A stretch of 52,127 nt of DNA, taken from a virus (lineage: Duplodnaviria; Caudoviricetes). The DNA lies in the IMG/VR virus record IMGVR_UViG_3300036979_000430, positions 1-52,127 of that record; one strand, given 5' to 3'. Position 1 is the first letter of the stretch. Each line of letters opens with the position of its first letter. This document shows, piece by piece, positions 1,983-52,127 of the stretch. The notes beneath the pieces are model-generated. The model did no database searches and had not been told where the DNA came from. It saw nothing but the letters and a program-made list of their open reading frames with translations. The position numbers and the translations under genes were made by a program.

Positions 1983-2425
1983 CCACACCCAACATTCGCA
2001 CTGCACTGGACACGTTCCAGCGGGCAGCCAATCACGGCCCCACCATTCTCGCCGCCCTGGAGCGGTTGATTGAACTGGAAGACACGGCCAGCACCAATGG
2101 CGCAGACCCTGATGCGACGGCATGGAATGACGCCGTTGCCACTGGCCGTGCCGCTCTGAAAGCGGATAAAGCCTACCGAGATCTTAACAAAACACTTAAA
2201 ATAGAAAGACCAGAACTAACAGACGTAGACCTCTGGGAATTATTGCCAAAGCAATTCAAAGATGATTTGCTGGAAATGTTGGGAATGGCAAGCCTTAAAC
2301 TGCCCCCACATTGTACCGCTGGGAGGTTGTTATTACTGCTTACTCCCAATTTACTAGCTGGAATCCGCGCCGTTATTGCTGCTGATCGTGAATTACTGAA
2401 CACCCCCACCAAGGAACAACTATGA
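1979..2425 (+). CDS. Hypothetical protein
   Basis: Coupled at both ends; ALERLIELED...WNDAVATGRAALKA module resembles the N-termini of 2422-4290 and 50092-50433. Confidence 0.65.
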   Translation: MTTPNIRTALDTFQRAANHGPTILAALERLIELEDTASTNGADPDATAWNDAVATGRAALKADKAYRDLNKTLKIERPELTDVDLWELLPKQFKDDLLEMLGMASLKLPPHCTAGRLLLLLTPNLLAGIRAVIAADRELLNTPTKEQL

Positions 2426-4290
2426 CCATCCCAACGCCCCGCGCCGCCCTGGAGCGGTTGCTCGCCAGGCTTGATGAAACAACCGACAAAGATGGTCCCG
2501 TGCCGGCGTGGATGGATTCCTATTGCACTGCTGTCCAGTCCCTGAAGGCTGAGCCGGAACTGGAGGGGCCAAGCCTCAATGATGTTGACGAGCTGTGCGC
2601 CGAGTTTGGGTTTCATCTTGACGGCGACCAGGGCGACGGTTTTGAGATCCTGCGCGACATGATCACCGCCGCTATTGCCCGCTGGCGTGCTCCGGTTGTT
2701 GAGCCCTTCACCCCGCCAGCGTCGGAGCAGGGTGATGCCTGGTGGCACGAACTCATCAGCGAGATTGCCAGGGTTCAGCATGTCGCGCAAGGCGAAGGCC
2801 AAGGGCCACGGTTTGACCTGGCCAAGGCCGTTAAGTTGTCGCGCCGTCCCACCCCGCCAGCGCCGGAGCCGCCCGCTGAATCCCTCGCGGCTCGCCCGCT
2901 ACTGGAGCAGGTATCCCGGCTGGGTCGTATCGGCGCTCCCACCATGAGCGAAATCGTAGTGATCAGCAACCGCGCCGCCGCTTGGCTGCGGCAGAATCCA
3001 CCAAGCCAGCCGGTGGCGATTGAGCCGAGGGGTTGCCCGACGCCAGGGGCCTGTTCGTGCGTTGAACCCACCCCGCCAGCGCCGGAGGTGGGGGAGTTGA
3101 GCACCGATTTTCGCTCTCTGTGTGCTGCTATGTTGTCATGGTGGGGCCTGTTGGCTCTCCCTGAATGCGCAAGGCCACAGGATCAGGCATTGTTTGACGA
3201 GCTGGGGCGACTGGCCCGCGCCGCCCTGAAGGCCGAGCCGGTGGCTACCCCCGCGACGCAAGAGCTTGACGGGGATCGCGTTCAGAAACTGGCCGCGATC
3301 ATCAGGGAGGCGGACCCCGCACGACTGCCCAGAGCATGGTCCCATCAGTTTGCTCAAGCGCTCCTGGCGCACCCAGGTTTTAGCGGCTGCTGCGATGGCC
3401 CCGCCGCCCCGCCAGCGCCGGAGCCGCCCGCCGAAGCCCTTGCCGCCCGCCCGCTGTTGGAGCAGGTAGCTGCAATGGCTGATTGCATCGGCGCCAAGAC
3501 CGTGGGCCAGATCACGGCGATCAGCAACCGCGCTGCCGTCTGGCTGCGGGAGAATCCACCAGGCCGGCCGGCGGCGATCGAGCCGACCCCGCCAGCGCCG
3601 GAGCCGGGGGAGGTGGGGGAGTTGGTGAACTCCCTCACGCTGATCGGCGACGGAATGAATGCCCTGAACCATGAGGCAGATTCGTGGGTCGTCGCCCGCG
3701 CCGCCACCCTGCTCCAGCAGCAGGAGTCCGGGCTGGCCGCCCTGCGGGGGGTGCCAGTGGGTGAGGATCTGCCAAAGCCCAACACCAAGGTGCTTGCGTT
3801 TTACCTCAACAAATTGGGCAAAGGGCGAACCATTTGCGCTATCTGGGTGCCCGCAAAGACGCGAGTAAGCGACAGCGATATTGACGAAGACCTTGAATTT
3901 GAATATGACGATGAAACAGATCAGTTCTACTGGCCTGAGGGCTGGTACGAAACAATCGAGAACTGGGAGGAATTTGGCTATCTCAAGGTTTATGAAGGCG
4001 AGGTGGTTTACTGGCAACCACTTCCAAAGTGGCCCGCCAACGCCCTGCCAGCGCCCCAGGCCGGGGAGGCCCAGCCACCCCACCCCACATTCCTAGACGC
4101 CATTCGACTGGCCCAAGGCTGCCACGACTATTCAGGCGGCCATAGCGGGCAGCAAGGGGAGGCGTTCCAGGACGGCGTCGGCACGGTTGTGGCTGTGCTC
4201 AAAAAGGCAGCAGTCGGGTCGTGGGATTCCCAGACCATGGCGGTGTTTGGTGTGGGGTCAGCGCCTCAGGCTGGGGAGGGGGAGGCGTGA
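2422..4290 (+). CDS. Modular hypothetical protein with internal repeats and a DUF551-like domain
   Basis: 622 aa; repeated PPAPE linkers, duplicated LAARPLLEQV...ISNRAAxWLRxNPP module, and an LPKPNTKVL...YWQPLP segment. Confidence 0.7.
   Translation: MTIPTPRAALERLLARLDETTDKDGPVPAWMDSYCTAVQSLKAEPELEGPSLNDVDELCAEFGFHLDGDQGDGFEILRDMITAAIARWRAPVVEPFTPPASEQGDAWWHELISEIARVQHVAQGEGQGPRFDLAKAVKLSRRPTPPAPEPPAESLAARPLLEQVSRLGRIGAPTMSEIVVISNRAAAWLRQNPPSQPVAIEPRGCPTPGACSCVEPTPPAPEVGELSTDFRSLCAAMLSWWGLLALPECARPQDQALFDELGRLARAALKAEPVATPATQELDGDRVQKLAAIIREADPARLPRAWSHQFAQALLAHPGFSGCCDGPAAPPAPEPPAEALAARPLLEQVAAMADCIGAKTVGQITAISNRAAVWLRENPPGRPAAIEPTPPAPEPGEVGELVNSLTLIGDGMNALNHEADSWVVARAATLLQQQESGLAALRGVPVGEDLPKPNTKVLAFYLNKLGKGRTICAIWVPAKTRVSDSDIDEDLEFEYDDETDQFYWPEGWYETIENWEEFGYLKVYEGEVVYWQPLPKWPANALPAPQAGEAQPPHPTFLDAIRLAQGCHDYSGGHSGQQGEAFQDGVGTVVAVLKKAAVGSWDSQTMAVFGVGSAPQAGEGEA
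2590..2706 (+). repeat. 117-nt module repeated at 33038-33154
   Basis: Both copies encode ELCAEF..H.D.D.....ILRDMITAAIARWRAPVxEP and share an identical core ATCCTGCGCGACATGATCACCGCCGCTAT. Confidence 0.85.
2711..3603 (+). repeat. Five copies of the 17-nt linker CCCCGCCAGCGCCGGAG, plus a ~170-nt duplicated module
   Basis: Copies at 2852, 3071, 3407, 3587 (exact) and 2711 (1 mismatch); 2852-3025 resembles 3407-3585. Confidence 0.85.
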
Positions 4291-22180: not shown

Positions 22181-25027
22181 TCAGCGGATTCGCTGCATCG
22201 TCTGCTGCAGCTTCAGGCTGGACCCGTCCCCCCGAACCCCTACCGATACGTTCCATGCTTTGCGCCGCAGCTCAGCTACCTCTTGGCTCAGGTTTCCAAC
22301 CGCCATCGCTAGATGCGCCATCGCCGGATCGGGCCCCGCACGCAGCACCCCCGCACCGCCCAGGGCCCCGGATTCCTTCAGCCGGCTGGTCACGTGGGCC
22401 GGGATGACGGTGCCCTTTGAGGGTGCCGTCCAGAGGCTGTTCATGGGGCGGTTGATCAGGGATAGGGCACCCGATGCCGACAGGAACGACTCCTGCCCCA
22501 GACTCATCCCGCTCGGGCCGTCATTGATTCGGTAGGTGCCGCCCGCATCCACCGGGCCACCAGTGAACCTCGCAGGGGGCAGGCCGGCGGCGGCATTCAG
22601 TGAGTTGTAGAACGATCGAGCAGCATCGGCAGCGTTGCTCATGTTGCTGGCCAACCCTGCGGTCTGGCTCCTGGCCTGGCCCGTAGCTTTGGCGGCATCA
22701 CCGATGAAGCCGGTGATCTTGTAATACCCCTCACCGGTGTCCTCTACCTGTAGGCCGGTGTCACGGACTAGGCCCTGGAAGGTTTTGGCTTGGTTCAGGG
22801 GTGTCAAGAACGAGTCTTGGTAGCTGTTGAACTGCTCCCTAGTGCCCCTGGCTGCTTTGAAGGTGCCATCAGCGGCTAGCGCCAGATTCTTGGCGGCAGC
22901 TTCGGCCTTGATCTGGTTCTGGGCGGTTTCGTTTGTCACCCCAGCGATCAGCGACTCTACCGCTTGAATTTTGGTCAGAGTTTCTAGCTTGGTATTGGCG
23001 GCTTGTAGGCTGAGTTGAGCTTTTTGTATTTCAACTTCTGCCTTTGCGGCGGCTACGGTATCACTTGCTAATTGGGCAGCTTTCAAATCTAAAACAGCCC
23101 TTTCTAGGTCTAGCTTTGCGCTGCTCGCCGCTGAACCGGCGTCAAGCTGTGCTTGCTCTTGCTGCAATGCCAGCAGAACCCTTTGCAACTCCTGCTGCTG
23201 TACCAATGCGTTGTACTTGAACGTAAGGGCAGCCCTGTCAATTTCGTCACCTTGACGCTTGATTGCATTTATCTCACCTTCACTTGCGCCGCGTTGTTGC
23301 GCTTGCTGTAGTTCGTATGTATTGCGATTCCGAATAATACCAAAACGCGAGTCTTCCAGGCCGATCAGCGCCTGGCCTAGGTTGATACCTGCCTGGCTGA
23401 CCTTTACCTGTTGATCAATTTGCGCCTTGGCAAGATCACTGTAGGCTCCTGCGAGCTTCCTGGCGTTTTCGTTGGCGACTTGATCCGCTAAGTTCTGGCT
23501 TCGCTTGTTGCCAAGGATCTGCCCTGCAATCACTTCTTTTTCTTTCTCTTTTGCGGTAATCTCAGCTTGCGCTTGTTTTTGTTTATCAAGCTCTGCGTTT
23601 ATTTCTTTGTTGCCGTCAAGCAACTTGTCAAGTCCAGGTATTCGTGAAAGCTCAGACAATCCCCGAAACGGGTTTAACAGTTTTTGCAATCCTTCACCAA
23701 CAGGCGTTGCAAGAACCTTGCCAATATTTGACCCTGCTATTTCTGCTAATTTTGCTGCAATAGAAATAGCCTTGGCAAGGTCAGAAAATTGTTTTGAAGC
23801 TCCGGGTAGTGCCGTATTAACTTGTCCGGCTAAGTTTTTGGTGGCATTAACAACCTGATTGAATCCGCTTGCTATTGTTTCTGATGCAATTTCGCTGGCT
23901 GCTTTCGCTTGACCGGTTTTTGTTATTTGGTTATCAAGCAGCTTGTTGTAGGTCTCAAGATCGTTCAGGATGGGCTGCAACGCAGTTTGGCCTTCGATAT
24001 TAAATAAAATCGCCAATTTATCGGCAGTGCCCCCCCCCTTTGCTTTGATCTCTTCAAGAATACCGCCTAAACCCTTGGCCTTTAGGTTTGCAAAATCAAA
24101 GCTAATTCCCAGTTGACTGGCTAATGCCTTGGCCTCTTCCGTTGGCTTAATGATTGAGCTAAGTGCTTGACGCAAGCCAGTAAATGTCTGCGCAATGGGT
24201 ACTTTCTTTAGCGTATCTGCCGCAACTGCGGCATTTAGTTCTTGATAAGAAACGCCAGCGGCTGCCGCAAGGGATGCAAGGTTGCCTATTTGTTCACCGT
24301 ATTGGGCAACAGTAATAACGCCATCGTTTTGCGTTTGAATGAAGCTATCAACAATCGCTGTAGCATCTTTTGCGGCTAACCCGTAAGCATTGATAACACC
24401 TGATACGGCTTCAGATACAACCCCAAGTTCGGCAAAGCCTCCTTTTGCGCCTAAAGCAGATGCGCGTAAAATTTCGACGTTTTCCGCTGTTGAGCTAAAA
24501 CCGCTAGACGCTACGTCGTATGATGCTTTGAGTAAATCAGCTTGGCTTACATTATTGTTTAGCTCATTTGAGAGACCCAGTAGGGCTGAGCTTAATTCTT
24601 TAGAGTTAACCCCAAGCGTGCGAACCGCCGCCCCTGCGGTGTCAAGTTCGGTGACAGCTTGACCAACAAAAGTGATTGCTTGATATAGGCCAATAAACGC
24701 GGCTGCCTGCAAAGCCACGCCTTCTACAGCCTTGCTAAAGCCGTTCATCGCGGTGGCCCCGCCTGCCATGGCAGCATCTACCTGCGCCTGCGCCTGCGCT
24801 ATTTGCCTCTGCGCTGCGACAAACTCCTTAGAGCCGATGACCGACTTCTCCAAGGTCTGATTTAGCTCATTCAGCCGGCCACGCAGCCCGGTGATCGTCT
24901 GGTCGCCGCTGCTAAACCCTTCCTTGAACTGCTGCCCCGCTTGCTTCCCCGCCTGCCCGATCTGCCGCGAGGCATCGAGCACGCCCTTCACATCGGCGGT
25001 AACCCTGACGACCCACTCGTTTGCCAT
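22181..25027 (-). CDS. Tail tape measure protein
   Basis: 948-aa Ala/Gln-rich helical protein with a TP901-type core (YDVASSGF, INAYGL, TQNDGVIT) and a C-terminal RFTGGPV...Y.IN..G.E motif. Confidence 0.9.
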   Translation of the reverse strand: MANEWVVRVTADVKGVLDASRQIGQAGKQAGQQFKEGFSSGDQTITGLRGRLNELNQTLEKSVIGSKEFVAAQRQIAQAQAQVDAAMAGGATAMNGFSKAVEGVALQAAAFIGLYQAITFVGQAVTELDTAGAAVRTLGVNSKELSSALLGLSNELNNNVSQADLLKASYDVASSGFSSTAENVEILRASALGAKGGFAELGVVSEAVSGVINAYGLAAKDATAIVDSFIQTQNDGVITVAQYGEQIGNLASLAAAAGVSYQELNAAVAADTLKKVPIAQTFTGLRQALSSIIKPTEEAKALASQLGISFDFANLKAKGLGGILEEIKAKGGGTADKLAILFNIEGQTALQPILNDLETYNKLLDNQITKTGQAKAASEIASETIASGFNQVVNATKNLAGQVNTALPGASKQFSDLAKAISIAAKLAEIAGSNIGKVLATPVGEGLQKLLNPFRGLSELSRIPGLDKLLDGNKEINAELDKQKQAQAEITAKEKEKEVIAGQILGNKRSQNLADQVANENARKLAGAYSDLAKAQIDQQVKVSQAGINLGQALIGLEDSRFGIIRNRNTYELQQAQQRGASEGEINAIKRQGDEIDRAALTFKYNALVQQQELQRVLLALQQEQAQLDAGSAASSAKLDLERAVLDLKAAQLASDTVAAAKAEVEIQKAQLSLQAANTKLETLTKIQAVESLIAGVTNETAQNQIKAEAAAKNLALAADGTFKAARGTREQFNSYQDSFLTPLNQAKTFQGLVRDTGLQVEDTGEGYYKITGFIGDAAKATGQARSQTAGLASNMSNAADAARSFYNSLNAAAGLPPARFTGGPVDAGGTYRINDGPSGMSLGQESFLSASGALSLINRPMNSLWTAPSKGTVIPAHVTSRLKESGALGGAGVLRAGPDPAMAHLAMAVGNLSQEVAELRRKAWNVSVGVRGDGSSLKLQQTMQRIR

Positions 25028-27071: not shown

Positions 27072-27905
27072 TCACAGCAGGTCAAGCCCTGGCTTGCCGT
27101 AACCGGCCAGGTTCACCGTGTACTTGATCACGGTGCCGGCTTCCTGTGCGGGCTGGTAGCTCTCAAACACGCCAAACCCGTACTCTACTTGATGCCCGTT
27201 GTAAGGGCCGATCAGGGCGTACTCCACCATCAGTTTCTCACTAAGGTTTAGCTCCTCGCATAGCCGCATCGCACGCCACGCAGAGGAGTCGAAACTGGCC
27301 GCGCCGCTCAGTGTCCAAGTCTTGTCCTTGGCGGTTGCGATCGGTGTGGCATAGCCCGCAGCCTCATCGTCGTAGGTGGTGATGGATTCCTTGGTCGTGG
27401 TGTTACTGGGCTGGGCATTGGTCAGCCCCTTTAGCTGGAATGGGTGATCGGTGCCATCCAGTACCAGCGACAGAGAAACCACGCCAGCGGCGACGGGAGC
27501 GGTGGTGATCGCTGAGCCGGTCAGGGCGTAAGACAGGGTGTGCGGGGATGTGGTAGTCACAGCCGTAACCACGAACGAGCCGTTGAGGGTGGCGAAGGGA
27601 GCGGGGAGATCCTTGACCACAATCCGCCGACCCACGGTGATGCCATGGGCGGCATCAAAGGTCAGGGTAGCGAGGCTGGTCGTTGTGACGGCATTCGTTA
27701 CCGCTTTGGTGCCAACTCCAAAAGCGAAGGTATCACCCGTGCCAGCGGTGAGAACTTTGGCGGTTGCGGATTGAATAGTGGTGTTGTCAATGAGTTTGCC
27801 AGCGCCAAGCGGGCCAAGGTTGACGCGAGTGAGATCTACCGCTGAAGACTTGAGAGGCGTGAAATAAAACCGGTAGTCAAAGGCCTGATGCCATTGCGTG
27901 GTCAT
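27072..27905 (-). CDS. Major tail (tube) protein with an inserted beta domain
   Basis: Tube-like C-terminal half (ESITTYDD.A.GYA.PIAT.KDKTWTLSG...YTVNLAGYG), followed by a terminator. Confidence 0.75.
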   Translation of the reverse strand: MTTQWHQAFDYRFYFTPLKSSAVDLTRVNLGPLGAGKLIDNTTIQSATAKVLTAGTGDTFAFGVGTKAVTNAVTTTSLATLTFDAAHGITVGRRIVVKDLPAPFATLNGSFVVTAVTTTSPHTLSYALTGSAITTAPVAAGVVSLSLVLDGTDHPFQLKGLTNAQPSNTTTKESITTYDDEAAGYATPIATAKDKTWTLSGAASFDSSAWRAMRLCEELNLSEKLMVEYALIGPYNGHQVEYGFGVFESYQPAQEAGTVIKYTVNLAGYGKPGLDLL

Positions 27906-27992: not shown

Positions 27993-28256
27993 ATGGCCTC
28001 ATATCCTCGCGGCGTCAGCCACTGCCCCCACAATGCTCAGCGCCCGTATCAGGCGCGGGTGTGGTGGGCTGGTCGTCGCTGGTCATTGGGCTACCACCAG
28101 ACGATCCAGGCGGCAGCGCAGCAGGTAGAGGACTGCTACCGGGAGATTGAGCGATGGGCAGCCATGAGCCTGCCGCCGCCCATGCTGGCGTTGCAGCATC
28201 GGGAGCGGATGGCACAAGCAAAGTCACCACCCGCTGCGGATCATCCGCCAACCTGA
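27993..28256 (+). CDS. AP2-like DNA-binding domain protein
   Basis: YPRGVS......PYQARVWWAGRRWSLGYHQTIQAAA; GGAAAGCT 5 nt before the ATG. Confidence 0.65.
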   Translation: MASYPRGVSHCPHNAQRPYQARVWWAGRRWSLGYHQTIQAAAQQVEDCYREIERWAAMSLPPPMLALQHRERMAQAKSPPAADHPPT

Positions 28257-29348
28257 AGGCCCGCACCTGGCCGGCGGCGGTATCCTCGGCCAGCAGGAGC
28301 CCCCGCCAGCCGTCCTGATGTTCGACTGGGGCCAGCAGTAGCGCATCATCCGCCAGTAGGGCCAGCGGCGTGGGTGGGTTCACCCCTTCCCCGGCGGTAG
28401 CAAGCGCGTCGTAGAAGGCCATCGCAAAGCCTGGGATCTGTACCTGCTGCCCTTCGCAAAGAGCCAGCATCGCCGCGCCGGCCTCCGCAGGTGGCCCGGA
28501 AGTCGCTTCCCCGCCCACCTTCGGCGGTAGGAACCAGCAGAAGTCCTCCATCTCCCACGGCTCGGCCCGCTTGTCCGGGTCCCGATGCGCGTTGGCGTAC
28601 CAGGCGGTGAGGTTGGCGATTGGCCGTTCTGCTGCGTGCTTGCGCTTCCTTCCCTCTTCAAGCGCTTCCCATATGAAGGTTTCGGGGCACCAGGCAAATC
28701 GCTCACGGGCGAAGGCGGGGTTGTGGGGCCAGAGGTCGTTGAGTCGCCAGAAGATGGCACCCCAGTCGGTTGGGGCAGGTCGGGCTTTCCCAGGCTGTCG
28801 GCCATTGCCTGCAGGGCCGCCTCGGGGTCAGCCGGCGCCGCCCCGCCGCGTTGCTCCTTGAGCATGAAAACGTAGACGGCATTCCGAAGCCCCTCGGTTA
28901 ATCCCAGGGTCTGTTCGTCGGTCCACTTGGCGCAATCGGGATCCACCTTGCCCAGCCGGTACACGATCGCTGCGGTAACCAGTCGGGTGACCTGGGCTTG
29001 ATTCTGGACCGACAGGCGGTTGTCAATGTCCCTGATCAGCCGGTGCTCCCGCAGTCGGATCTGATCTTCCAAGGGCTCCAGCACCACGGGGATGCCGATA
29101 TGGCGGGCCATCAGGCGGGCGGCCACCAGGTTGGCGGTAGCCTCGGGCAAATCGTCTGCCTCGCGGATGATCTGGGCCAGCCGGTGGGTCTGCTCGGTCA
29201 CCGTGGACTGGTAGTCGATCTCATCAACCAGGATCCGCTCACCGGTCAGCAGGCAGTTGAAGACCGGGAATTGCAGGATGCCGGTGGTTGCGTCCCCCAC
29301 GTCCTCGACCGTGACTTCTGGCGGGGCGGTGACAAAGGGGAGGGGCAT
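28015..29348 (-). CDS. Tail assembly chaperone, -1 frameshifted product (gpGT-like, ~444 aa)
   Basis: The -1 frame after GGGAAAG reads ARPAPTDWGAIFWRLNDLWP...EPWEMEDFCWF without stops and joins ORF 28015-28551. Confidence 0.75.
28380..29348 (-). CDS. Tail assembly chaperone (gpG-like, unshifted product)
   Basis: Contains the in-frame slippery heptamer G GGA AAG (SLGK) at 28785-28791. Confidence 0.75.
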   Translation of the reverse strand: MPLPFVTAPPEVTVEDVGDATTGILQFPVFNCLLTGERILVDEIDYQSTVTEQTHRLAQIIREADDLPEATANLVAARLMARHIGIPVVLEPLEDQIRLREHRLIRDIDNRLSVQNQAQVTRLVTAAIVYRLGKVDPDCAKWTDEQTLGLTEGLRNAVYVFMLKEQRGGAAPADPEAALQAMADSLGKPDLPQPTGVPSSGDSTTSGPTTPPSPVSDLPGAPKPSYGKRLKREGSASTQQNGQSPTSPPGTPTRIGTRTSGPSRGRWRTSAGSYRRRWAGKRLPGHLRRPARRCWLFAKGSRYRSQALRWPSTTRLLPPGKG

Positions 29349-32833: not shown

Positions 32834-33463
32834 ATGACCAATCCAGAAAACCCCAGCACCGCCCCCGTTGCATGGTGCCGATCCGATGAGTTTGCTCAAT
32901 TTGCCCAGGGACGGGAATATCTTCTCGCCTTCAGTGAGCATCACCCCGACTGCGACATGCCGTTGTACGCGCAACCCCAGGCCAGCACCGCCCCAGACGC
33001 AGACCGGGCAGAAGGGCCGAAACCCGGCGATATTGCTGAGCTGTGCGCCGAGTTTGAGTACCACATTGACAGCGACGACTACCACAGTATTGGCATCCTG
33101 CGCGACATGATCACCGCCGCTATCGCCCGCTGGCGTGCCCCGGTTGCTGAGCCCGTGGCAGCCCAGGACACCGAAATAGATTGGAAGAGCATGACCGCTC
33201 GCATGGACTTCGGCATGGCCAATGCTGAGGCCAGTGCAGCTGCCGCCGCTGCCTGGAACCAGCGCAGCGCCTGGCAGCCGATTGAAACGGCGCCTAGGGA
33301 TGGGAGCCAGATCCTTGCTTGGGATGGCGACGAGCTGCTGATCGCCTGGTGGTGTGACGGCGGCAGATGGATAAGCGACAACCTGCAGCAATACCATCCA
33401 GGGGAGTACGAAAACCCAACCCACTGGCAGCCCCTCCCCAGCCCTCCGCCCATCACCCCCTAG
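32834..33463 (+). CDS. Modular protein with C-terminal DUF551-like domain
   Basis: ATG at 32834; WQPIETAPRDG...PTHWQPLPSPP; carries the 117-nt module shared with 2590-2706. Confidence 0.7.
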   Translation: MTNPENPSTAPVAWCRSDEFAQFAQGREYLLAFSEHHPDCDMPLYAQPQASTAPDADRAEGPKPGDIAELCAEFEYHIDSDDYHSIGILRDMITAAIARWRAPVAEPVAAQDTEIDWKSMTARMDFGMANAEASAAAAAAWNQRSAWQPIETAPRDGSQILAWDGDELLIAWWCDGGRWISDNLQQYHPGEYENPTHWQPLPSPPPITP

Positions 33464-46769: not shown

Positions 46770-48776
46770 TTGGTGGTGGGGGTGATGGGTTCGTAGATGA
46801 CGCGGGCACGGTGCTGAGCGATCTGGCGTAGGTCCGTCCAGAACGGTGCTTCGTGATCCGGGGGCAGGATCAACGCCTCGGGGACGCCAGCGGTGTTGCG
46901 CACGTTGAGGATACGCAGGCCCCAGCCGGGGGTCTTGGGGGTGGTCATGGCTGGGGCAATACGTCGGGCGGGCTGACGCGCAACCAGGCGGTTTCCATAT
47001 CCCGCCCAATGTCACGCACACCGCGCCATTGGGTGTTCTTGGGCTTGGTCACACTGCGCAGCCTGGCGAGTCCATTGTCGATCTTGTCAACCTGCCAATC
47101 CTTCAGGCGCGGAGATCGCCAGACCTCGCCAAGGCGGAAGCGGTCGGCAGGGGGTGGGGCTTGAGTTTCGCAGGGGTTCATCAGCCAGTCAGGGGTGAGC
47201 ATGGGGAGTAGTGGCGGGTGGCCTCATCTTCACAATCTCCTCCAGCTCAGATCGAGCCCGGTCCAGTTCGCGTTTTTGGCGTTCAACATTTTCATTGGCC
47301 TGCTTCAGTAGCTCAAGGTACGCGGCTTCCCATGTCTTGTGATACTTGTCAGATTTTTTATGCTGGGAAGTTAATGTCTCCGCCACATTGTCACGACTTC
47401 TCCACTCTACCTTGATCCACAAAAACTTTTCGGTTTCTTTGACCACTAAAACAGGTACAATTCTCGCTCCCCATCCTTCGATTTTCCACCAAGTCGCGGT
47501 TTGCTGCTCAGTGGTGTTGGTGTTGGTCATTCTGCTTCAGTTTCGGTGGTGTAAGTAAATACAGCGTGGCGAGTTATTGTGTAATCCATGTCACATTCCC
47601 CGCAAGTTACTTCGGCGGTATCACATAGCTCAAAATCATGGTCAATATCCCAAGGCTCTGTATTGATTGCCCCGCAAATCGGACAGACGGGGTTGGGATT
47701 GTCGCGGCAAGTAATCATGGTTCAATCCTCAATTCACATTCAAAAGCAATAATCGGCGGCGGCTCAACCACCCCATCAGTCGGGCCCGGCCTAGCGCGGC
47801 GCTGACAGTCTGCGCAGCCATAGGCCCAATCAAACTGCCCGTCTTCCTTGACGCCGGCACCGGGGCAGCCGAGCACCTCCCAGCCGTGGGCGCGGACGTG
47901 GGCGGGGCGGTTGGGGCCATGGCGATGAAACCGGATGCGGCCGTCATGGCGCATGGACTGGAGTCTGTAGTCAATTCGAGCCGCCTTTGATCCACCCCAA
48001 TCTCCACCAGGAGGCGTCAAATTGGGGTCAGAAAACGGATGCAGGTCGCTATCCCGCAGCGACAGCCAGATCAACCAGTCCAGCTCGTCGGTGCTCACGG
48101 GGTCAGGCATTGGGCCTCCGCAGCTCCCGGCCAACGGCCAGTGCCATGGACTCCCTCCCTGGGTCGATCGGTTGCCACCCTGCCTGGATCTCTGGCTGGT
48201 GGCACCCGACCGCGTAAAGAACGTCTGCAGTGGTGCTGGCGCCCCCGTACAGCTCGCTGAAGTAGGCGGCGATTTCGTGGGCCGCCGCTGCTGCACCATC
48301 GCGGCAGGTTGCGCACGGGGTCGAGCAGGGCCGGGCGCCGTCGCCGTCGCGGTCTGGGGCCATGGCAGCGCAAAGGGCGCGGGCGATGCGATCCGAGAGG
48401 GTGGGGTCAACCGTGGCCGGCTGCTCAGTGTGCGTGGGCATCGCCCACGGCGCTGCCTTCTGCGGCGCTGGCATGTCACACCAGGGGCCAGGCTTGTTGC
48501 GGTATTGCCAGGACCCGTCGGCGTTCTGTCGGACTGTTGAGCCTGCTGGGATAGGGGGGAATTGATCGCTCATGGTTCAGACGGCGGCGGGCTTGGGATG
48601 CGCTCGCCGAAGTAGGGCTGGTAGCCACCAATACGCTGAGGCCTGATCGGCAGCGGTGGACTGCTTCCCCGGCGGCGAGCATTGAACTCGCGCCAATGCT
48701 CATTCCGGGTTTGAAGAAACACAAAAATCCACGTCGAAGCAGATATGGCTAAAAGGCCAAGCAGGAGATCAGCCAT
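46766..48776 (-). other. Run of small coupled hypothetical genes (46766-46948, 46945-47202, 47189-47530, 47527-47718 zinc finger, 47715-48110, 48103-48573, 48570-48776 TM)
   Basis: Consecutive overlapping stop/start junctions; CPICG...CGEC in 47527-47718. Confidence 0.6.
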
Positions 48777-48978
48777 TGCTCCCCTCCAGTTCGGTGGCGA
48801 TGGCGAGCAGTTTTCTGTGATCCTGCACAAATTGCATAAGGGGCGCGGCGGCGCGGATTGCCGCGGCGGCAACCACATCCGGGCTGGCGGAGAGGTTGCG
48901 ATACTGATCCCAAAATGCTGCAATGACCGCGTCTTTCAATTTCTGCGCGGCGGGGCTCAGTGGCTTGGGGGTGGTCAT
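48769..48978 (-). CDS. Small helical protein (LSPAAQ...LLAIATELE), in frame with the unshifted FGE ORF
   Basis: Internal ATG at 48978 ([12 protein letters not shown]); paralogous to 49764-49940. Confidence 0.6.
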
Positions 48979-49018
48979 AATCCAAAGGCAAAGAATTAAA
49001 GGGCAAAAGGGTAAAGAA

Positions 49019-49767
49019 TTAGTCCTGGGGGAGGCAACAGACGCGGAAACCGATGTAGTTGTAGCGGTTGACCGGGAGGATGCTGAAGCGGCAGGCCGAA
49101 CGGCAGTACGCGGGGTGGTCGTTCCACGCCCCGCCGCGCAGCAGTCTTTGGACTTTCCCAGGCTGCAATCCTCCCAGGCACTGCCGTCATTGGGGGCGCC
49201 TTCGTAATCGCTGTGCCAGTGGTCCTGGCACCACTCCCAGACATTGCCGTGCATGTCATGCAAGCCCCAGGCATTGGCGGGGTAGCTGGCCACATCAACA
49301 GTCTCGGAGTCGTTGTAGTTGGCCTGCTCCGGCGTCAACGTGGCCCCAAAGTAAAACGGTGTGCTACTGCCGGCACGGCAGGCGTATTCCCACTGGGCTT
49401 CACTTGGCAGCCCGTAGCGCTTGCCCGTGCGCTGGCTCAGGCGGCGGCAAAACTCCTGCGCGTCGCGCCAGCTCACCATCTCTACCGGTCGCTGGTCGCC
49501 CTTGAAACAGGAAGGATCGGGTTCCAGGTCGCGCTCCACCTTCGGCCAACCCGCCACCGTCCGCCACTGGGCCTGGGTGGTCGGTGTCTGGGCCATCCAG
49601 AAGGCCCTCAGCGTCACCTGATGCTGGGGGCCTTCATCGTCGAACCGATCCGGCTCGCTCTCTGGAGAGCCCATCAGGAAGCTGCCGGCAGGGATCGGCA
49701 ACATGGTGATGGCAATTCCATCCCACCCTGGCTTTAGCTCTTGCTCGAATGTCATGGGGTTGGTCAT
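49019..49767 (-). CDS. FGE-sulfatase/C-type-lectin-fold protein, DGR-target-like; completed by a -1 frameshift at 49153-49159 (~249 aa)
   Basis: [31 protein letters not shown] and [16 protein letters not shown] in frame 0. The canonical end [17 protein letters not shown]......R...[11 protein letters not shown] is in the -1 frame. Confidence 0.8.
49022..49145 (-). other. Candidate DGR variable region (VR)
   Basis: Non-scaffold codons are nearly all NNC (AAC GAC CAC, TAC, TGC, TTC AGC ATC CTC, GTC AAC, TAC AAC TAC ATC), as expected for A-mutagenised AAC-type codons. Confidence 0.6.
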
Positions 49768-49940
49768 GGATCAAGTTCCTCGGCGATTTGATGTAATTGA
49801 TTTCGATCCAATGGCATCCTGGAGCAGCCCAGAAAAACCATTGCACGCAAGGCTTGGGCGGCAATTTCGGGGGCGTTAGGTCCGTACCCCTTAATAGCGG
49901 CCAGGATTGCTGTGGCTTCAGGGCTTAAAAGTGCGGTCAT
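49764..49940 (-). CDS. 58-aa small helical protein (not in ORF track)
   Basis: [16 protein letters not shown]...AAQALRA...[10 protein letters not shown]; ATGA-coupled on both sides. Confidence 0.6.
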
Positions 49941-51447
49941 GGGGTGGTTTCCGGGGCTGACTGCACAACCTGGCGGAGAAACTCAATTTCGCCCTCCTGT
50001 AAATCCTCACTGACCACGTACCCAGCGGGCTTGAGCGGATCGAGGTCTTGACATTGCAGTGCTTCGACGGCTTCGGCATCAGTATCAAATGTCATGGGGC
50101 CTCGTTGGGTGTGAAGGTTGGCGCCACCGGGGCGGGCGGCAGCCGGGAGAAGTGGGTGTGGTGACCGGGCCAGTCGTTGTCGTTGGGGGTGCCAGCCCAT
50201 GGCGCATCTACATCCATGATCGGGAACAACCACCACAAGGCCGGCCCATCGTCCTCGTGCCATTGCTCGGCGGGGATAGCGACCTCTGGGGCTAGGGCTT
50301 GGCGGGCTTGGTGCATGGCCTGGTACCAGTCGTTGGTCCACTGCGGATCGGTCCCGATTTCAAATCCCGTGGGCGCCTGATCGTCCAGTTCAACCAATCG
50401 GGCCAAGGCGTCATGGACGGTGGGGATGGTCATGGCCTAACCTCCCGGTCCTGCGGTTCCGCAGCCTGCTGCAGCAGCTTGGCCTCCACAGCCTTAGCCC
50501 ATCGCCAAGGGCTCTGGCCCGCTTCCATTCCGGCATTGAACATATCAACAAGCAAAGAATACATCTCGATTTTGTCTATAATTGTAAAGTCAATTTTGTC
50601 AAGTTTGCGGTCTTCCATCATGCGATCAAACCACGGCTCAAAAGCAGCAAAGTCGCGCAAGTGGCCATCAGCGGGATCACCCTTGCCCCATGGACTAACA
50701 GGCCAGCCTGCGCTTTCGTCAGGCCAGGATTCACGCCAACCGCAGCGGCCAGGCCGAAAGCTGGTGAAGAATTGGCCATAGGGCAGGAACAGCCCACCCT
50801 GGCCGCTGTTGTCCCACCAGAAGCGACCGATCTGGCCGCCGTTGGAGTCGATGCGGAAGGTCATAGCTTCACCCCCAACGCAGGCGCCTGCCCGGCCAAC
50901 CACTCTTCCACAGCAGCCAGCGCTGGCGAGGGAATTAGGTGGCTGCCGACAGGGCACCAGAGCCACCGGTCCCTGTCGGCAGCAAAACCGAGGGGGCTCC
51001 AGGAACAGGTTTGATCAAGGAGAACGCGCTTCCCAATGCGTCGGCGAAACCGCACTACCCAAAGACGGGGATCCTGGCCATGGGCCCAGGCGGTGACGGT
51101 AAGGCCGATAGACGGATCGGCATAGATGGTTTGCTCAAGTGTGCTCATGGCTTCACCCCCCTAAAGTCGAGCCCAGGCACAACCGTGGCAGTCACCACAC
51201 GGTTAGGTACCGGCACGGGGTTTGCTTTGAGCCAGGCCTCGGCAATGGCGCGGGTCTCACTGTCTGCTAGCGGTTGCCACTGGCGCAGCCCCCACCCAAT
51301 CTTGTCAATCCAGGTGGTGTGCCGGTCCTTTTTGCGCCCGCTAGTGGTGCTGTAGGTGAATTTCAGGGCCCAGCGACCCACGGCGGCGCGGGCGGTGATG
51401 GTCAGGTGCCAGCCGTCGGCGGGGCCGGTGTAGATGGTGGTGTTCAT
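49937..51447 (-). other. Run of small coupled hypothetical genes (49937-50095, 50092-50433, 50430-50864, 50861-51148, 51145-51447)
   Basis: ATGA junctions at every boundary; 50092-50433 contains WHEDDGPALWW...HTHF.RLP. Confidence 0.6.
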
Positions 51448-52127
51448 GGCGAAGAATGGGTTGATACGGGTTCAGCAGCCTTGCGGCGGGGTTTCTTCTT
51501 AGCCACCTGCTCAGGCAGCACCTGCCCCTTGATGCGGGCGTAGCGGGCGTTGACGGCGGCCCAGACTTCCTCATCCAGGAACTCAAAATGCACCGTGCCT
51601 TTGAGGTGTGCTTTGAACTTGAAGAATCCCCAGGTGTACCACTCACCAGGCCAGAAGATGCCATCACCGGCTGGTTTCTCGGGTTGAGCCACCTCGTCGT
51701 AGCTGCGACCCGTGATGAAGCACAGCGCCTTGATCAGGTCGCGGATCTCATCGCTTTGGCTGCCGTAGGTCTTGATGTTGACGCCACGGTTGTCCCAGGC
51801 ACGCTCCGCCATGTAGGCGCGGATGAAGCGGCGGTTGAGCATGTAGCCGCTGTTCGTGACCCAGCCCTCCACACCCCAGCGGTTTTCCTTGGTGTGCTTG
51901 GTGAGGCTGTCGATGGCTTCCTCTACCGCACGATCAACCCGCTGGTCTTGGGTGCCGGCGACGATCTGGAGCATCCGGTAGATGTTCCGTTCAGTAAAGG
52001 GGATTTTGCTCTGCTGCTCAACAAAGGCATTGATGTCCTTTGCAAGCTGGCTGGTGGCCATCTGCGCGGGCAGGAACTCGGCAAAGACGTGCTTCCAGGC
52101 TGTCTTCTGCAGATCCTTGCGAAAGCG
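51444..52127 (-). CDS. DUF4942-like protein, 3' part (gene runs off the window edge)
   Basis: IPFTERNIYRML, DLIKALCFITG and WGFFKFKAHLKGTVHFEFLD; the frame stays open to the window end. This domain often follows a methyltransferase domain. Confidence 0.65.
   Translation of the reverse strand, partial: RFRKDLQKTAWKHVFAEFLPAQMATSQLAKDINAFVEQQSKIPFTERNIYRMLQIVAGTQDQRVDRAVEEAIDSLTKHTKENRWGVEGWVTNSGYMLNRRFIRAYMAERAWDNRGVNIKTYGSQSDEIRDLIKALCFITGRSYDEVAQPEKPAGDGIFWPGEWYTWGFFKFKAHLKGTVHFEFLDEEVWAAVNARYARIKGQVLPEQVAKKKPRRKAAEPVSTHSSP

Follow-up and report, generated by a model that had tools for sequence, protein, structure and literature searches.

The virus record IMGVR_UViG_3300036979_000430 carries on its minus strand (49767-49019) a gene that encodes the core of an FGE-sulfatase/C-type-lectin fold in frame 0 and the hypervariable C-terminal end of the same fold in the -1 frame, with the switch falling on an in-phase slippery heptamer, G GGA AAG. 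The window that we analysed is the whole record, 52,127 bp. The arrangement of this gene and of its relatives makes it probable, with appreciable room for doubt, that programmed -1 frameshifting selects among alternative variable C-termini, and that in the window it is the sole route to a complete protein.

The layout that emerges for the family comprises the core, a Shine-Dalgarno (SD)-like GGAGG, an in-phase heptamer, a hairpin formed by the scaffold of the C-terminal module, a -1 module with its own stop and, in most cases, one more module that returns to frame 0. Standard decoding together with -1 shifting would then give proteins with one core and alternative variable ends, and two relatives repeat the heptamer-plus-module unit three to five times. 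The window gene has undergone a 130-nt deletion between modules 1 and 2; what remains is one chimeric module, read in -1, and only shifted ribosomes would make the complete domain. The 44-residue hypervariable end would join the 205-residue core only through a -1 shift at C CUG GGA AAG, and unshifted ribosomes would read through into the next gene. We infer that ribosomes do shift at this site and that both isoforms function.

The frame break in the window gene

Frame 0 of the window gene runs over 205 codons (49153-49767, minus strand), from an ATG at 49767 to the AAG at 49155-49153. It matches positions 4-209 of the Pfam family PF03781 (FGE-sulfatase) with E 9e-43, residues 42-244 of the solved structure of PvdO (5hha) and, at 73% identity, residues 1-191 of a contiguous phage homologue, L011. 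The remainder of the fold is found in the -1 frame, where 49168-49019 matches PF03781 positions 210-253 with E 6e-4 and 19.9 bits, a score that alone lies below the 23.3-bit cut-off. The solved structures give the same order, with the -1 piece corresponding to PvdO residues 249-283; it also matches residues 254-294, in the variable C-terminus of Treponema TvpA (2y3c), and residues 189-232 of L011 at 55% identity. As positions 4-209 of the family are read in frame 0 and positions 210-253 in -1, the break is clean and lies at the heptamer. The -1 module, including the TAA at 49021-49019 that ends it, spans 49019-49159, has codons of the form NNC at its variable positions and shows 87% DNA identity to host variable regions. 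The first-pass annotation had described a fold of this type up to the heptamer and the canonical ending of the family in the -1 frame, with its stop at 49019-49021, and the profile, structure and homologue matches bear out both statements.

The switch itself is also where it had been placed. The frame-0 codons are AGC CTG GGA AAG, in which G GGA AAG (49159-49153) is phased as X XXY YYZ. A shift at this point gives a predicted product of 205 + 44 = 249 aa, in agreement with the size of about 249 aa proposed earlier. The other product proposed then, 332 aa without the variable end, needs a different description: frame 0 stays open until it joins the next gene (ATG 48978), which creates a 332-aa open reading frame (ORF; 49767-48769) by read-through and not a designed isoform. 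The frame-0 continuation past the heptamer (48769-49152) has no family match and is stop-free into the downstream 69-aa ORF (ATG 48978, stop 48769-48771), for which Pfam and PHROG gave no match either.

The sequence at the break was compared with independent contigs. A 1572-nt contig from a different assembler and the likely source run has 0 differences and 0 gaps over 48400-49421, a check that rests on contigs, not raw reads, and on a sample that is the probable source sample. Contigs of the RNA run X24 touch only 48443-48803 and 49229-49277, with mismatches, and neither support nor contradict the frame break. There was no Rfam match in 47000-52127 at E values up to 1.

In another sample, X2, contigs match the flanks with 0 differences (48649-49034 and 49429-49733), the heptamer is uncovered and the coverage breaks up in the module, where only diverged contigs with 16-18 differences in 119 nt are found (49026-49144). 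This hints that the module may differ between populations of an otherwise identical phage, the link of the X2 contigs to the phage being uncertain.

Frame and heptamer across the gene family

We searched viral, genome and metagenome collections with the core, and placed the first C-terminal module of each distinct copy relative to the frame of the core, counting only copies that matched both the core and the module patterns. The tally comprises 141 distinct copies with a recognisable first module, which is in frame 0 in 125, in -1 in 16 and in +1 in none; all cellular copies have it in frame 0. A looser search added two -1 genes (L281 and a second paralogue in the complete related phage record G002), which brings the -1 genes to 18 with the window gene included, on contigs with at least 16 different dataset ids. 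An in-phase XXXYYYZ heptamer stands between core and module in 10 of the 16 tallied -1 genes, versus 7 of the 125 frame-0 genes. Among the 18 -1 genes, GGGAAAG is found in ten, AAAAAAG in one (L033) and GGGGGAG in seven, and the canonical heptamers are all in phase. The alignment of homologues suggested earlier as a check on the conservation of site and break gives a mixed picture, with the -1 break in 18 genes, a canonical in-phase heptamer in 11 of them and none in the in-frame L011; the seven genes with GGGGGAG speak the other way.

Two relatives depart from GGGAAAG in different ways. In L033, A AAA AAG replaces GGGAAAG at the same place, and the six codons from the last -1-frame stop to the module (CAG TGC AAA AAA GTC CTG) contain no start codon. 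L011, which is in frame and groups with L007 as its sister in the tree of the cores (support 95/94), has GAGAAAG instead of GGGAAAG, one extra base after the site and a single module. The interval between the last -1 stop and the module is free of ATG, GTG and TTG in 4 of the 18 genes (L013, L017, L033 and L281), which rules out internal initiation as a general route to the module. Transcriptional slippage was rejected as well, the runs being only 3 nt long.

A wider scan for the heptamer together with a module start gave no new single-module genes among the matches listed. The same matches include about 100 viral contigs (L284-L363) with an unrelated, nearly invariant 45-nt stretch containing CTGGGAAAGTATGCGCGGCGG, which accounts for 99 matches of the examined loci; most of these contigs come from one dataset id and the frame through the stretch is continuous. 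Five other viral members of the family, L025, L027, L030, L032 and L037, have a stop about 30 codons past the core motif (...AWLDGDAK*) followed by AT-rich sequence, and no module was found in any frame within 1.6 kb. No intron or other Rfam family explains the early stop in the four of these that were scanned (L025, L027, L030 and L037).

Tandem modules and their spacing

The relatives of the window gene mostly carry more than one module. In all 16 tabulated relatives the stop of the frame-0 ORF coincides exactly with that of a later frame-0 module, and each -1 module is closed by a stop of its own, 2-6 codons past the motif GFRV. When a -1 module is read in frame 0 it forms an Ala/Ser/Thr/Pro-rich linker of 40 residues. 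The spacing from the -1 module to the frame-0 module is 124, 127 or 130 nt in the 14 of 14 genes so arranged, always 3n+1, and this holds across about eight different junction sequences. Longer arrays occur in L020 and L159, with five and three consecutive -1 modules followed by a frame-0 module; here the spacings are 150, 144, 144 and 153 nt (L020) and 144 and 144 nt (L159), all 3n, and each -1 module has its own in-phase C CTG GGA AAG ahead of it.

In L014 (3745-4470) and L016 (761-1285) the frame-0 isoform continues for about 190 residues past the module, with no Pfam match, so that the predicted isoforms would also differ by a whole extra C-terminal region. The record G002 (L007, 4562-4990) has two paralogues about 1.1 kb apart, each with G GGA AAG and with modules both in -1 and in frame 0; in the second paralogue the otherwise invariant CRSA motif is gone from the -1 module.

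Sequence elements around the junction

The heptamers themselves are of the efficient kind: of the three -1 motifs that work best in E. coli, two are G_GGA_AAG and A_AAA_AAG (PMC4066793, PMC5009743). In the window an SD-like GGAGG (49170-49174, minus strand) lies exactly 10 nt 5' of the heptamer, and GGAGG is found at this distance in 13 of the 18 genes with the first module in -1; it is not separable from coding constraint, because the W-E-D/G codons encode GGAGG. The exact sequence GGAGG-N10-heptamer-N6 followed by a GCGGCGG/CUGCCGC stem is present in six relatives (L004, L007, L007b, L017, L018 and L033), and L014 and L015, with the same spacer of 6, differ only upstream, where the SD-like run is 5 nt 5' of the heptamer. 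The stem is formed by the conserved codons of the module itself and begins 6 nt past the heptamer in seven canonical relatives, for which the consensus hairpin has an energy of -28 kcal/mol. Fold z-scores at five sites range from -0.78 to +0.32.

The window has a predicted, irregular GC-rich hairpin at 49079-49146 (minus strand), its base 6 nt and the conserved GCGGCGG/CUGCCGC stem 15 nt after the heptamer. The possible hairpin named in the first-pass annotation stands as a fold that may form, with -32.1 kcal/mol for 93 nt, but cannot be told from chance, being no more stable than shuffled sequences (z = -0.01).

A probable second frameshift site in the same phage

The window has another G GGA AAG (28785-28791, minus strand), at the probable frameshift site of a tail-assembly-chaperone-like gene pair (28015-29348), which lies between the head-tail genes and the tail protein and tape measure. 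The heptamer at 28791-28785 divides a G-like ORF of 185 codons, starting at 29348, from a T-like extension in the -1 frame (28791-28015). This continuation matches phrog_34388 from residue 47 onwards, ahead of its first possible start codon at residue 81. The heptamer is kept in a related phage: in G002, a 77%-identical T-like homologue starts exactly at a conserved GGGAAAG. In this phage lineage, a tail-chaperone-like frameshift thus very likely takes place at G GGA AAG already.

The two sites of the window share more than the heptamer. The 13-mer CAGCCTGGGAAAG occurs twice (28785-28797 and 49153-49165), both times on the minus strand, with 0 occurrences expected from 100 shuffles, whereas the bare heptamer GGGAAAG is not enriched in the window (6 found versus 8.4 expected). 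The identity over 13 letters that was pointed out earlier is therefore real in the window; it shrinks to the 10-mer CCTGGGAAAG once the tail gene of G002 is brought in, as this is the context common to that gene and the window's tail site. Three of the 13 identical bases are for this reason probably a coincidence.

The tail-chaperone-like pair is atypical in that frame 0 continues for 135 codons past the heptamer without an early stop. The G-like part has no PHROG or family match, and the pair is separated from the tape measure (22184-25027) by a gene for a tail protein (27075-27905).

History of the window gene

Compared with its nearest relatives, L002 (core 93% identical) and L003, the window gene lacks exactly one 130-nt unit, with nearly identical flanks on either side. 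Its module is chimeric, the 5' end resembling module 1 of L002 and the 3' end module 2. The window gene is thus evidently, from these alignments, a 130-nt collapse of a two-module array in which the surviving module is in the -1 frame. It alone lacks a frame-0 module, which 16 of 16 tabulated relatives keep. The collapse means that the supposed gating in the window may be either a rescue or a sign of decay.

The heptamer has a history of its own. Both L002 and L003 have GGGGGAG, and by parsimony with L003 as outgroup the GGGAAAG of the window appears to be derived from GGGGGAG on the window branch; the opposite polarity, with two parallel losses of GGGAAAG, is possible. Three to four of the approximately 11 substitutions on the window branch (about 640 nt) fall within 13 nt at the heptamer site, and all of these are G to A. 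Such clustered changes fit selection, or a conversion tract, restoring slipperiness after the in-frame module was lost. The remaining changes on the branch (2 synonymous, 4 non-synonymous) cannot separate function from decay.

Over 49138-49159 the window reads GGGAAAGTCCAAAGAC, versus GGGGGAGTCCGAAGGC in L002 and GGGGGAGTCCCAAGGC in L003, and at every difference the window has A where the relatives have G or C. Selection, a conversion tract or adenine-directed mutagenesis could each produce differences of this kind. An A-to-N origin, by the adenine mutagenesis of diversity-generating retroelements (DGRs), was considered for the heptamer and is unlikely, as only two discrete states occur in 17 genes.

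Relation to diversity-generating retroelements

The C-terminal modules have the character of DGR variable regions. In 41 distinct modules read in the standard register, about 15 variable codon positions hold 4-18 different codons each, with at least 10 codons at 10 of these positions; the third base is C in 59-100% of cases at the variable positions, and the scaffold codons are invariant or nearly so. The variable codons of the window module all end in C, and the window gene has the C-type-lectin/FGE fold with the variable region at the C-terminus. Each of five picocyanobacterial genomes contains 7-18 DNA matches to the window module, up to 87% identical, and all of these belong to in-frame genes of the same kind; for many variable regions in host genomes with DGR reverse transcriptases and template repeats the DNA identity is 80-87%. 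The reverse transcriptase (RT) family RVT_1 is found in four of the five host genomes, and an all-Asn template repeat (TR) of related type in three.

The machinery is absent from the phage side as far as we searched it. No repeat of the module that could serve as a TR is present anywhere in the window, RVT_1 was detected in 0 of 11 phage records (the whole 52-kb window record and 10 related ones), and a search with the RT of a host DGR gave matches in 0 of 5 phage records, the window included; altogether there is no RT, Avd or TR in the window phage or the 10 related records. The cognate TR was not found in the hosts, where pattern scans of the five genomes gave only VVCLPQ-type and not VCCLPQD-type TRs. 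With neither an RT in the 11 phage records nor a TR, the window gene does not lie in a DGR locus: its variable module is of the DGR type, yet the gene belongs to no DGR cassette. The earlier designation as a DGR-type target is accordingly justified by the NNC codon signature and the likeness to host variable regions, and does not extend to the locus. We infer that host DGRs diversify the phage modules in trans.

A scan of viral sequences for a TR gave one TR-like module, in an unrelated fragment without an RT (L399, 26.8 kb, CheckV 31%). This module (1959-2290) has Asn at nearly all variable positions, and a diversified module lies 162 nt downstream in the same frame, both within one 205-aa ORF that has no lectin core.

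Weighing the explanations

Several of our observations count against programmed frameshifting. The seven GGGGGAG genes among the 18 also have long stem spacers (15-21 nt), and since at GGGGGAG only the P-site tRNA could re-pair well, their -1 modules may be poorly expressed or silent. All 18 genes are related, and heptamer, phase and -1 offset may reflect only a few events; the independent ones are few and amount to the junction heptamer, the other heptamer that replaces it in L033, the loss of the site in L011 and the substitutions in the window. Nor are the remaining signals independent, since coding or the scaffold of the variable region accounts for the stem, for the SD-like run and for an alternative frame without stops. 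The hairpin pairs never vary, which leaves covariation at nil. The window fold, in addition to being no better than shuffles, has its minimum-energy form starting 6 nt past the heptamer and the conserved stem at 15 nt, not at 6. In E. coli the best heptamers without stimulators give about 0.3% shifting (PMC4066793), at which level most of the window product would be a truncated read-through fusion. Window-branch changes comprise 3 synonymous and 5 non-synonymous ones (188 codons), with no sign of purifying selection in numbers that are too small for a test. Scaffold residues that are otherwise invariant are missing from some -1 modules (L007b, L015/L016 and L281), and some arrays (L015, L020 and L159) contain identical duplicate modules or a +1-frame last module that a -1 shift could not reach, so that they look like flux, a rapid and partly non-adaptive turnover, rather than design.

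Much of this could be accommodated if the window gene were simply decaying, that is, if recombination or aberrant retrohoming had recently broken it by deleting 130 nt and the only in-frame module, with the heptamer inherited or incidental and shifting at background level. The exactness of the deletion relative to L002 and the chimeric module agree with such an event, as do the loss of a frame-0 module that 16 of 16 relatives keep, a stop-free frame 0 that fuses to the next gene, the poor 15-nt distance of the stem and the 3 synonymous versus 5 non-synonymous changes. Against decay stands the canonical heptamer, which by parsimony was gained on the window branch, within a G-to-A cluster, while the two nearest relatives, with a frame-0 module, have GGGGGAG; GGAGG is also retained at 10 nt, and the module is intact and ends at the normal stop of the family. 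We regard decay as an unlikely account, though as the main rival one to be taken seriously. An account at the level of the family would treat the -1 modules as silent cassettes, untranslated leftovers or reserves produced by duplication or faulty DGR homing, with the frame-0 module alone expressed behind the 40-aa linker and the heptamer as a relic of the junction where the first duplication arose. This leaves unexplained why a top-efficiency heptamer should stand in phase exactly at the junction, be swapped for another in L033 and be lost in the in-frame sister L011, as well as the GGAGG-N10/N6-stem geometry and the identity with the phage's own tail-gene frameshift site; nor is there a gene with a first module in frame 0 and a silent +1 copy behind it. 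On the other hand, the 3n+1 spacing needs selection on the frame-0 module only, the scaffold is by its very make-up free of stops in the alternative frame, a canonical heptamer is lacking in 7 of 18 genes, duplicate, degenerate or +1-frame modules exist, and DGR homogenisation could keep silent modules intact. We consider silent cassettes quite improbable.

The two other explanations carry far less weight. A one-base assembly or sequencing error, or a collapse of tandem modules by the assembler, has to be considered for a short-read metagenome assembly whose modules share scaffold blocks of 12-21 nt and which was checked only at contig level, the best-matching sample being probably the source sample. 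However, the same -1 junction occurs in 17 other genes from many datasets, the 1572-nt contig of a different assembler is identical over 48400-49421, and the stretch over which the two L002 modules agree at the crossover falls short of the 31-letter words that index the Logan contigs; an artefact is highly improbable. It is just as hard to credit a split protein, in which internal initiation would give a separate module that binds the core non-covalently. The -1 frame does have a TTG (49168) three codons ahead of the heptamer and beside the SD-like run, just after GGAGGA, but an SD-to-TTG spacing of 0-1 nt is unusable, the four genes L013, L017, L033 and L281 have no ATG, GTG or TTG there, and the 49-aa piece would need to supply the end of a fold that 125 homologues encode without a break. 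Programmed -1 frameshifting thus remains the reading that we favour. An extended form of it, in which dnaX-like cassettes before 2-6 tandem modules give sets of proteins, a host DGR diversifies them in trans and the window phage re-evolved its heptamer after the collapse, is tentative, and would rather surprise us if it held in full.

Phage and gene setting

The record has a CheckV completeness estimate of 100% and no terminal repeats. Genes for the large terminase, portal, head proteins, tail protein and tape measure are all on the minus strand, and the closest cellular relatives of the core are in freshwater Cyanobium/Synechococcus genomes. Since it combines this head and tail gene content with such relatives of the gene, the record can be assigned to a siphovirus-like cyanophage. 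The neighbours of the window gene (49767-49019, minus strand) are small and have no known function, and the terminase and a dCTP-deaminase-like gene lie downstream of them. The ATG of the window gene (49767) overlaps the stop of an upstream 58-aa ORF (ATGA).

Two other repeat features were noted in the window. Within a 622-aa ORF (2422-4290), at 2849-3586, two stretches recur directly at a spacing of 555-558 nt, one of 65 nt with 88% identity and one of 100 nt with 80%, and a 144-nt repeat of 80% identity links 2563-2706 with 33011-33154.

Comparison with known systems

Recoding and DGR diversification are each well known, and we did not find a link between them reported. The first-pass annotation had remarked that translational gating of a DGR-type variable region was not known to be described; this agrees with the portions of the literature available to our search, which contained no report of a frameshift site gating such a region, nor of variable modules that stand in tandem and out of frame. 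Comparable cases may be listed in PMC5758913, in Supplementary Table S1 and Data 6O/6P (TR/VR indels, frameshifts; VR, variable region). In the parts of the DGR surveys consulted, frameshifts are mentioned only as TR/VR indels or as broken RT genes. If our reading is true, it would be a new use of frameshifting, that of choosing among hypervariable binding ends, in some phages at several successive sites. It would also mean that RT-less phages carry DGR-type variable modules of their hosts' kind, and one would have to ask whether genes of phages are among the targets of host DGRs. The GGAGG-N10-G GGA AAG-N6-hairpin cassettes would then offer natural ON alleles (GGGAAAG, AAAAAAG) and putative OFF alleles (GGGGGAG, long spacer). 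For annotation, genes of this family are now miscalled as long fusion ORFs or as fragments.

The closest parallel is the G/GT gene pair of lambda, which has the same heptamer in the same phase and a -1 ORF that carries a conserved domain without a start of its own; the phage studied here also has a G/GT-like site with 10-13 nt of shared context. GGGAAAG is described as highly shift-prone in PMC5009743 and PMC4066793. In contrast to lambda G/GT, the window gene is not a tail chaperone and its frame 0 has no nearby stop, and the shift in the relatives swaps folded C-terminal segments within one domain and adds no domain.

A second parallel is dnaX of E. coli, which combines A AAA AAG with a 5' SD and a 3' stem-loop. 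The distances of SD and stem in dnaX are 10 nt and 6 nt, respectively. The same tripartite layout is found in six relatives of the window gene, with A AAA AAG itself in L033. According to PMC5009743, a 5' SD ranks as a major feature both in dnaX and in about 56% of insertion sequence (IS) elements. The shift in dnaX truncates the protein, whereas in the family of the window gene it would supply the end of the fold, and the window stem is 15 nt away.

One mRNA giving two products with a shared N-terminal part, through a heptamer that may or may not be helped by stimulators, is known from phage structural proteins (the T7 capsid proteins 10A/10B, the Listeria phages PSA and A118) and from OrfAB of IS3/IS911. 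These cases add an extension or fuse two ORFs, and none of them is known to choose among hypervariable modules or to use serial shift sites.

With respect to the fold, the window gene resembles DGR targets of the FGE-sulfatase/C-type-lectin type such as TvpA, which share the C-terminal variable region and the NNC codons on an invariant scaffold. Proteins with variable regions of this type form the largest class of DGR targets, according to PMC5758913. The window phage differs from these systems in having no RT, Avd or TR, and the modules differ in standing in tandem, in different frames and behind a slippery site.

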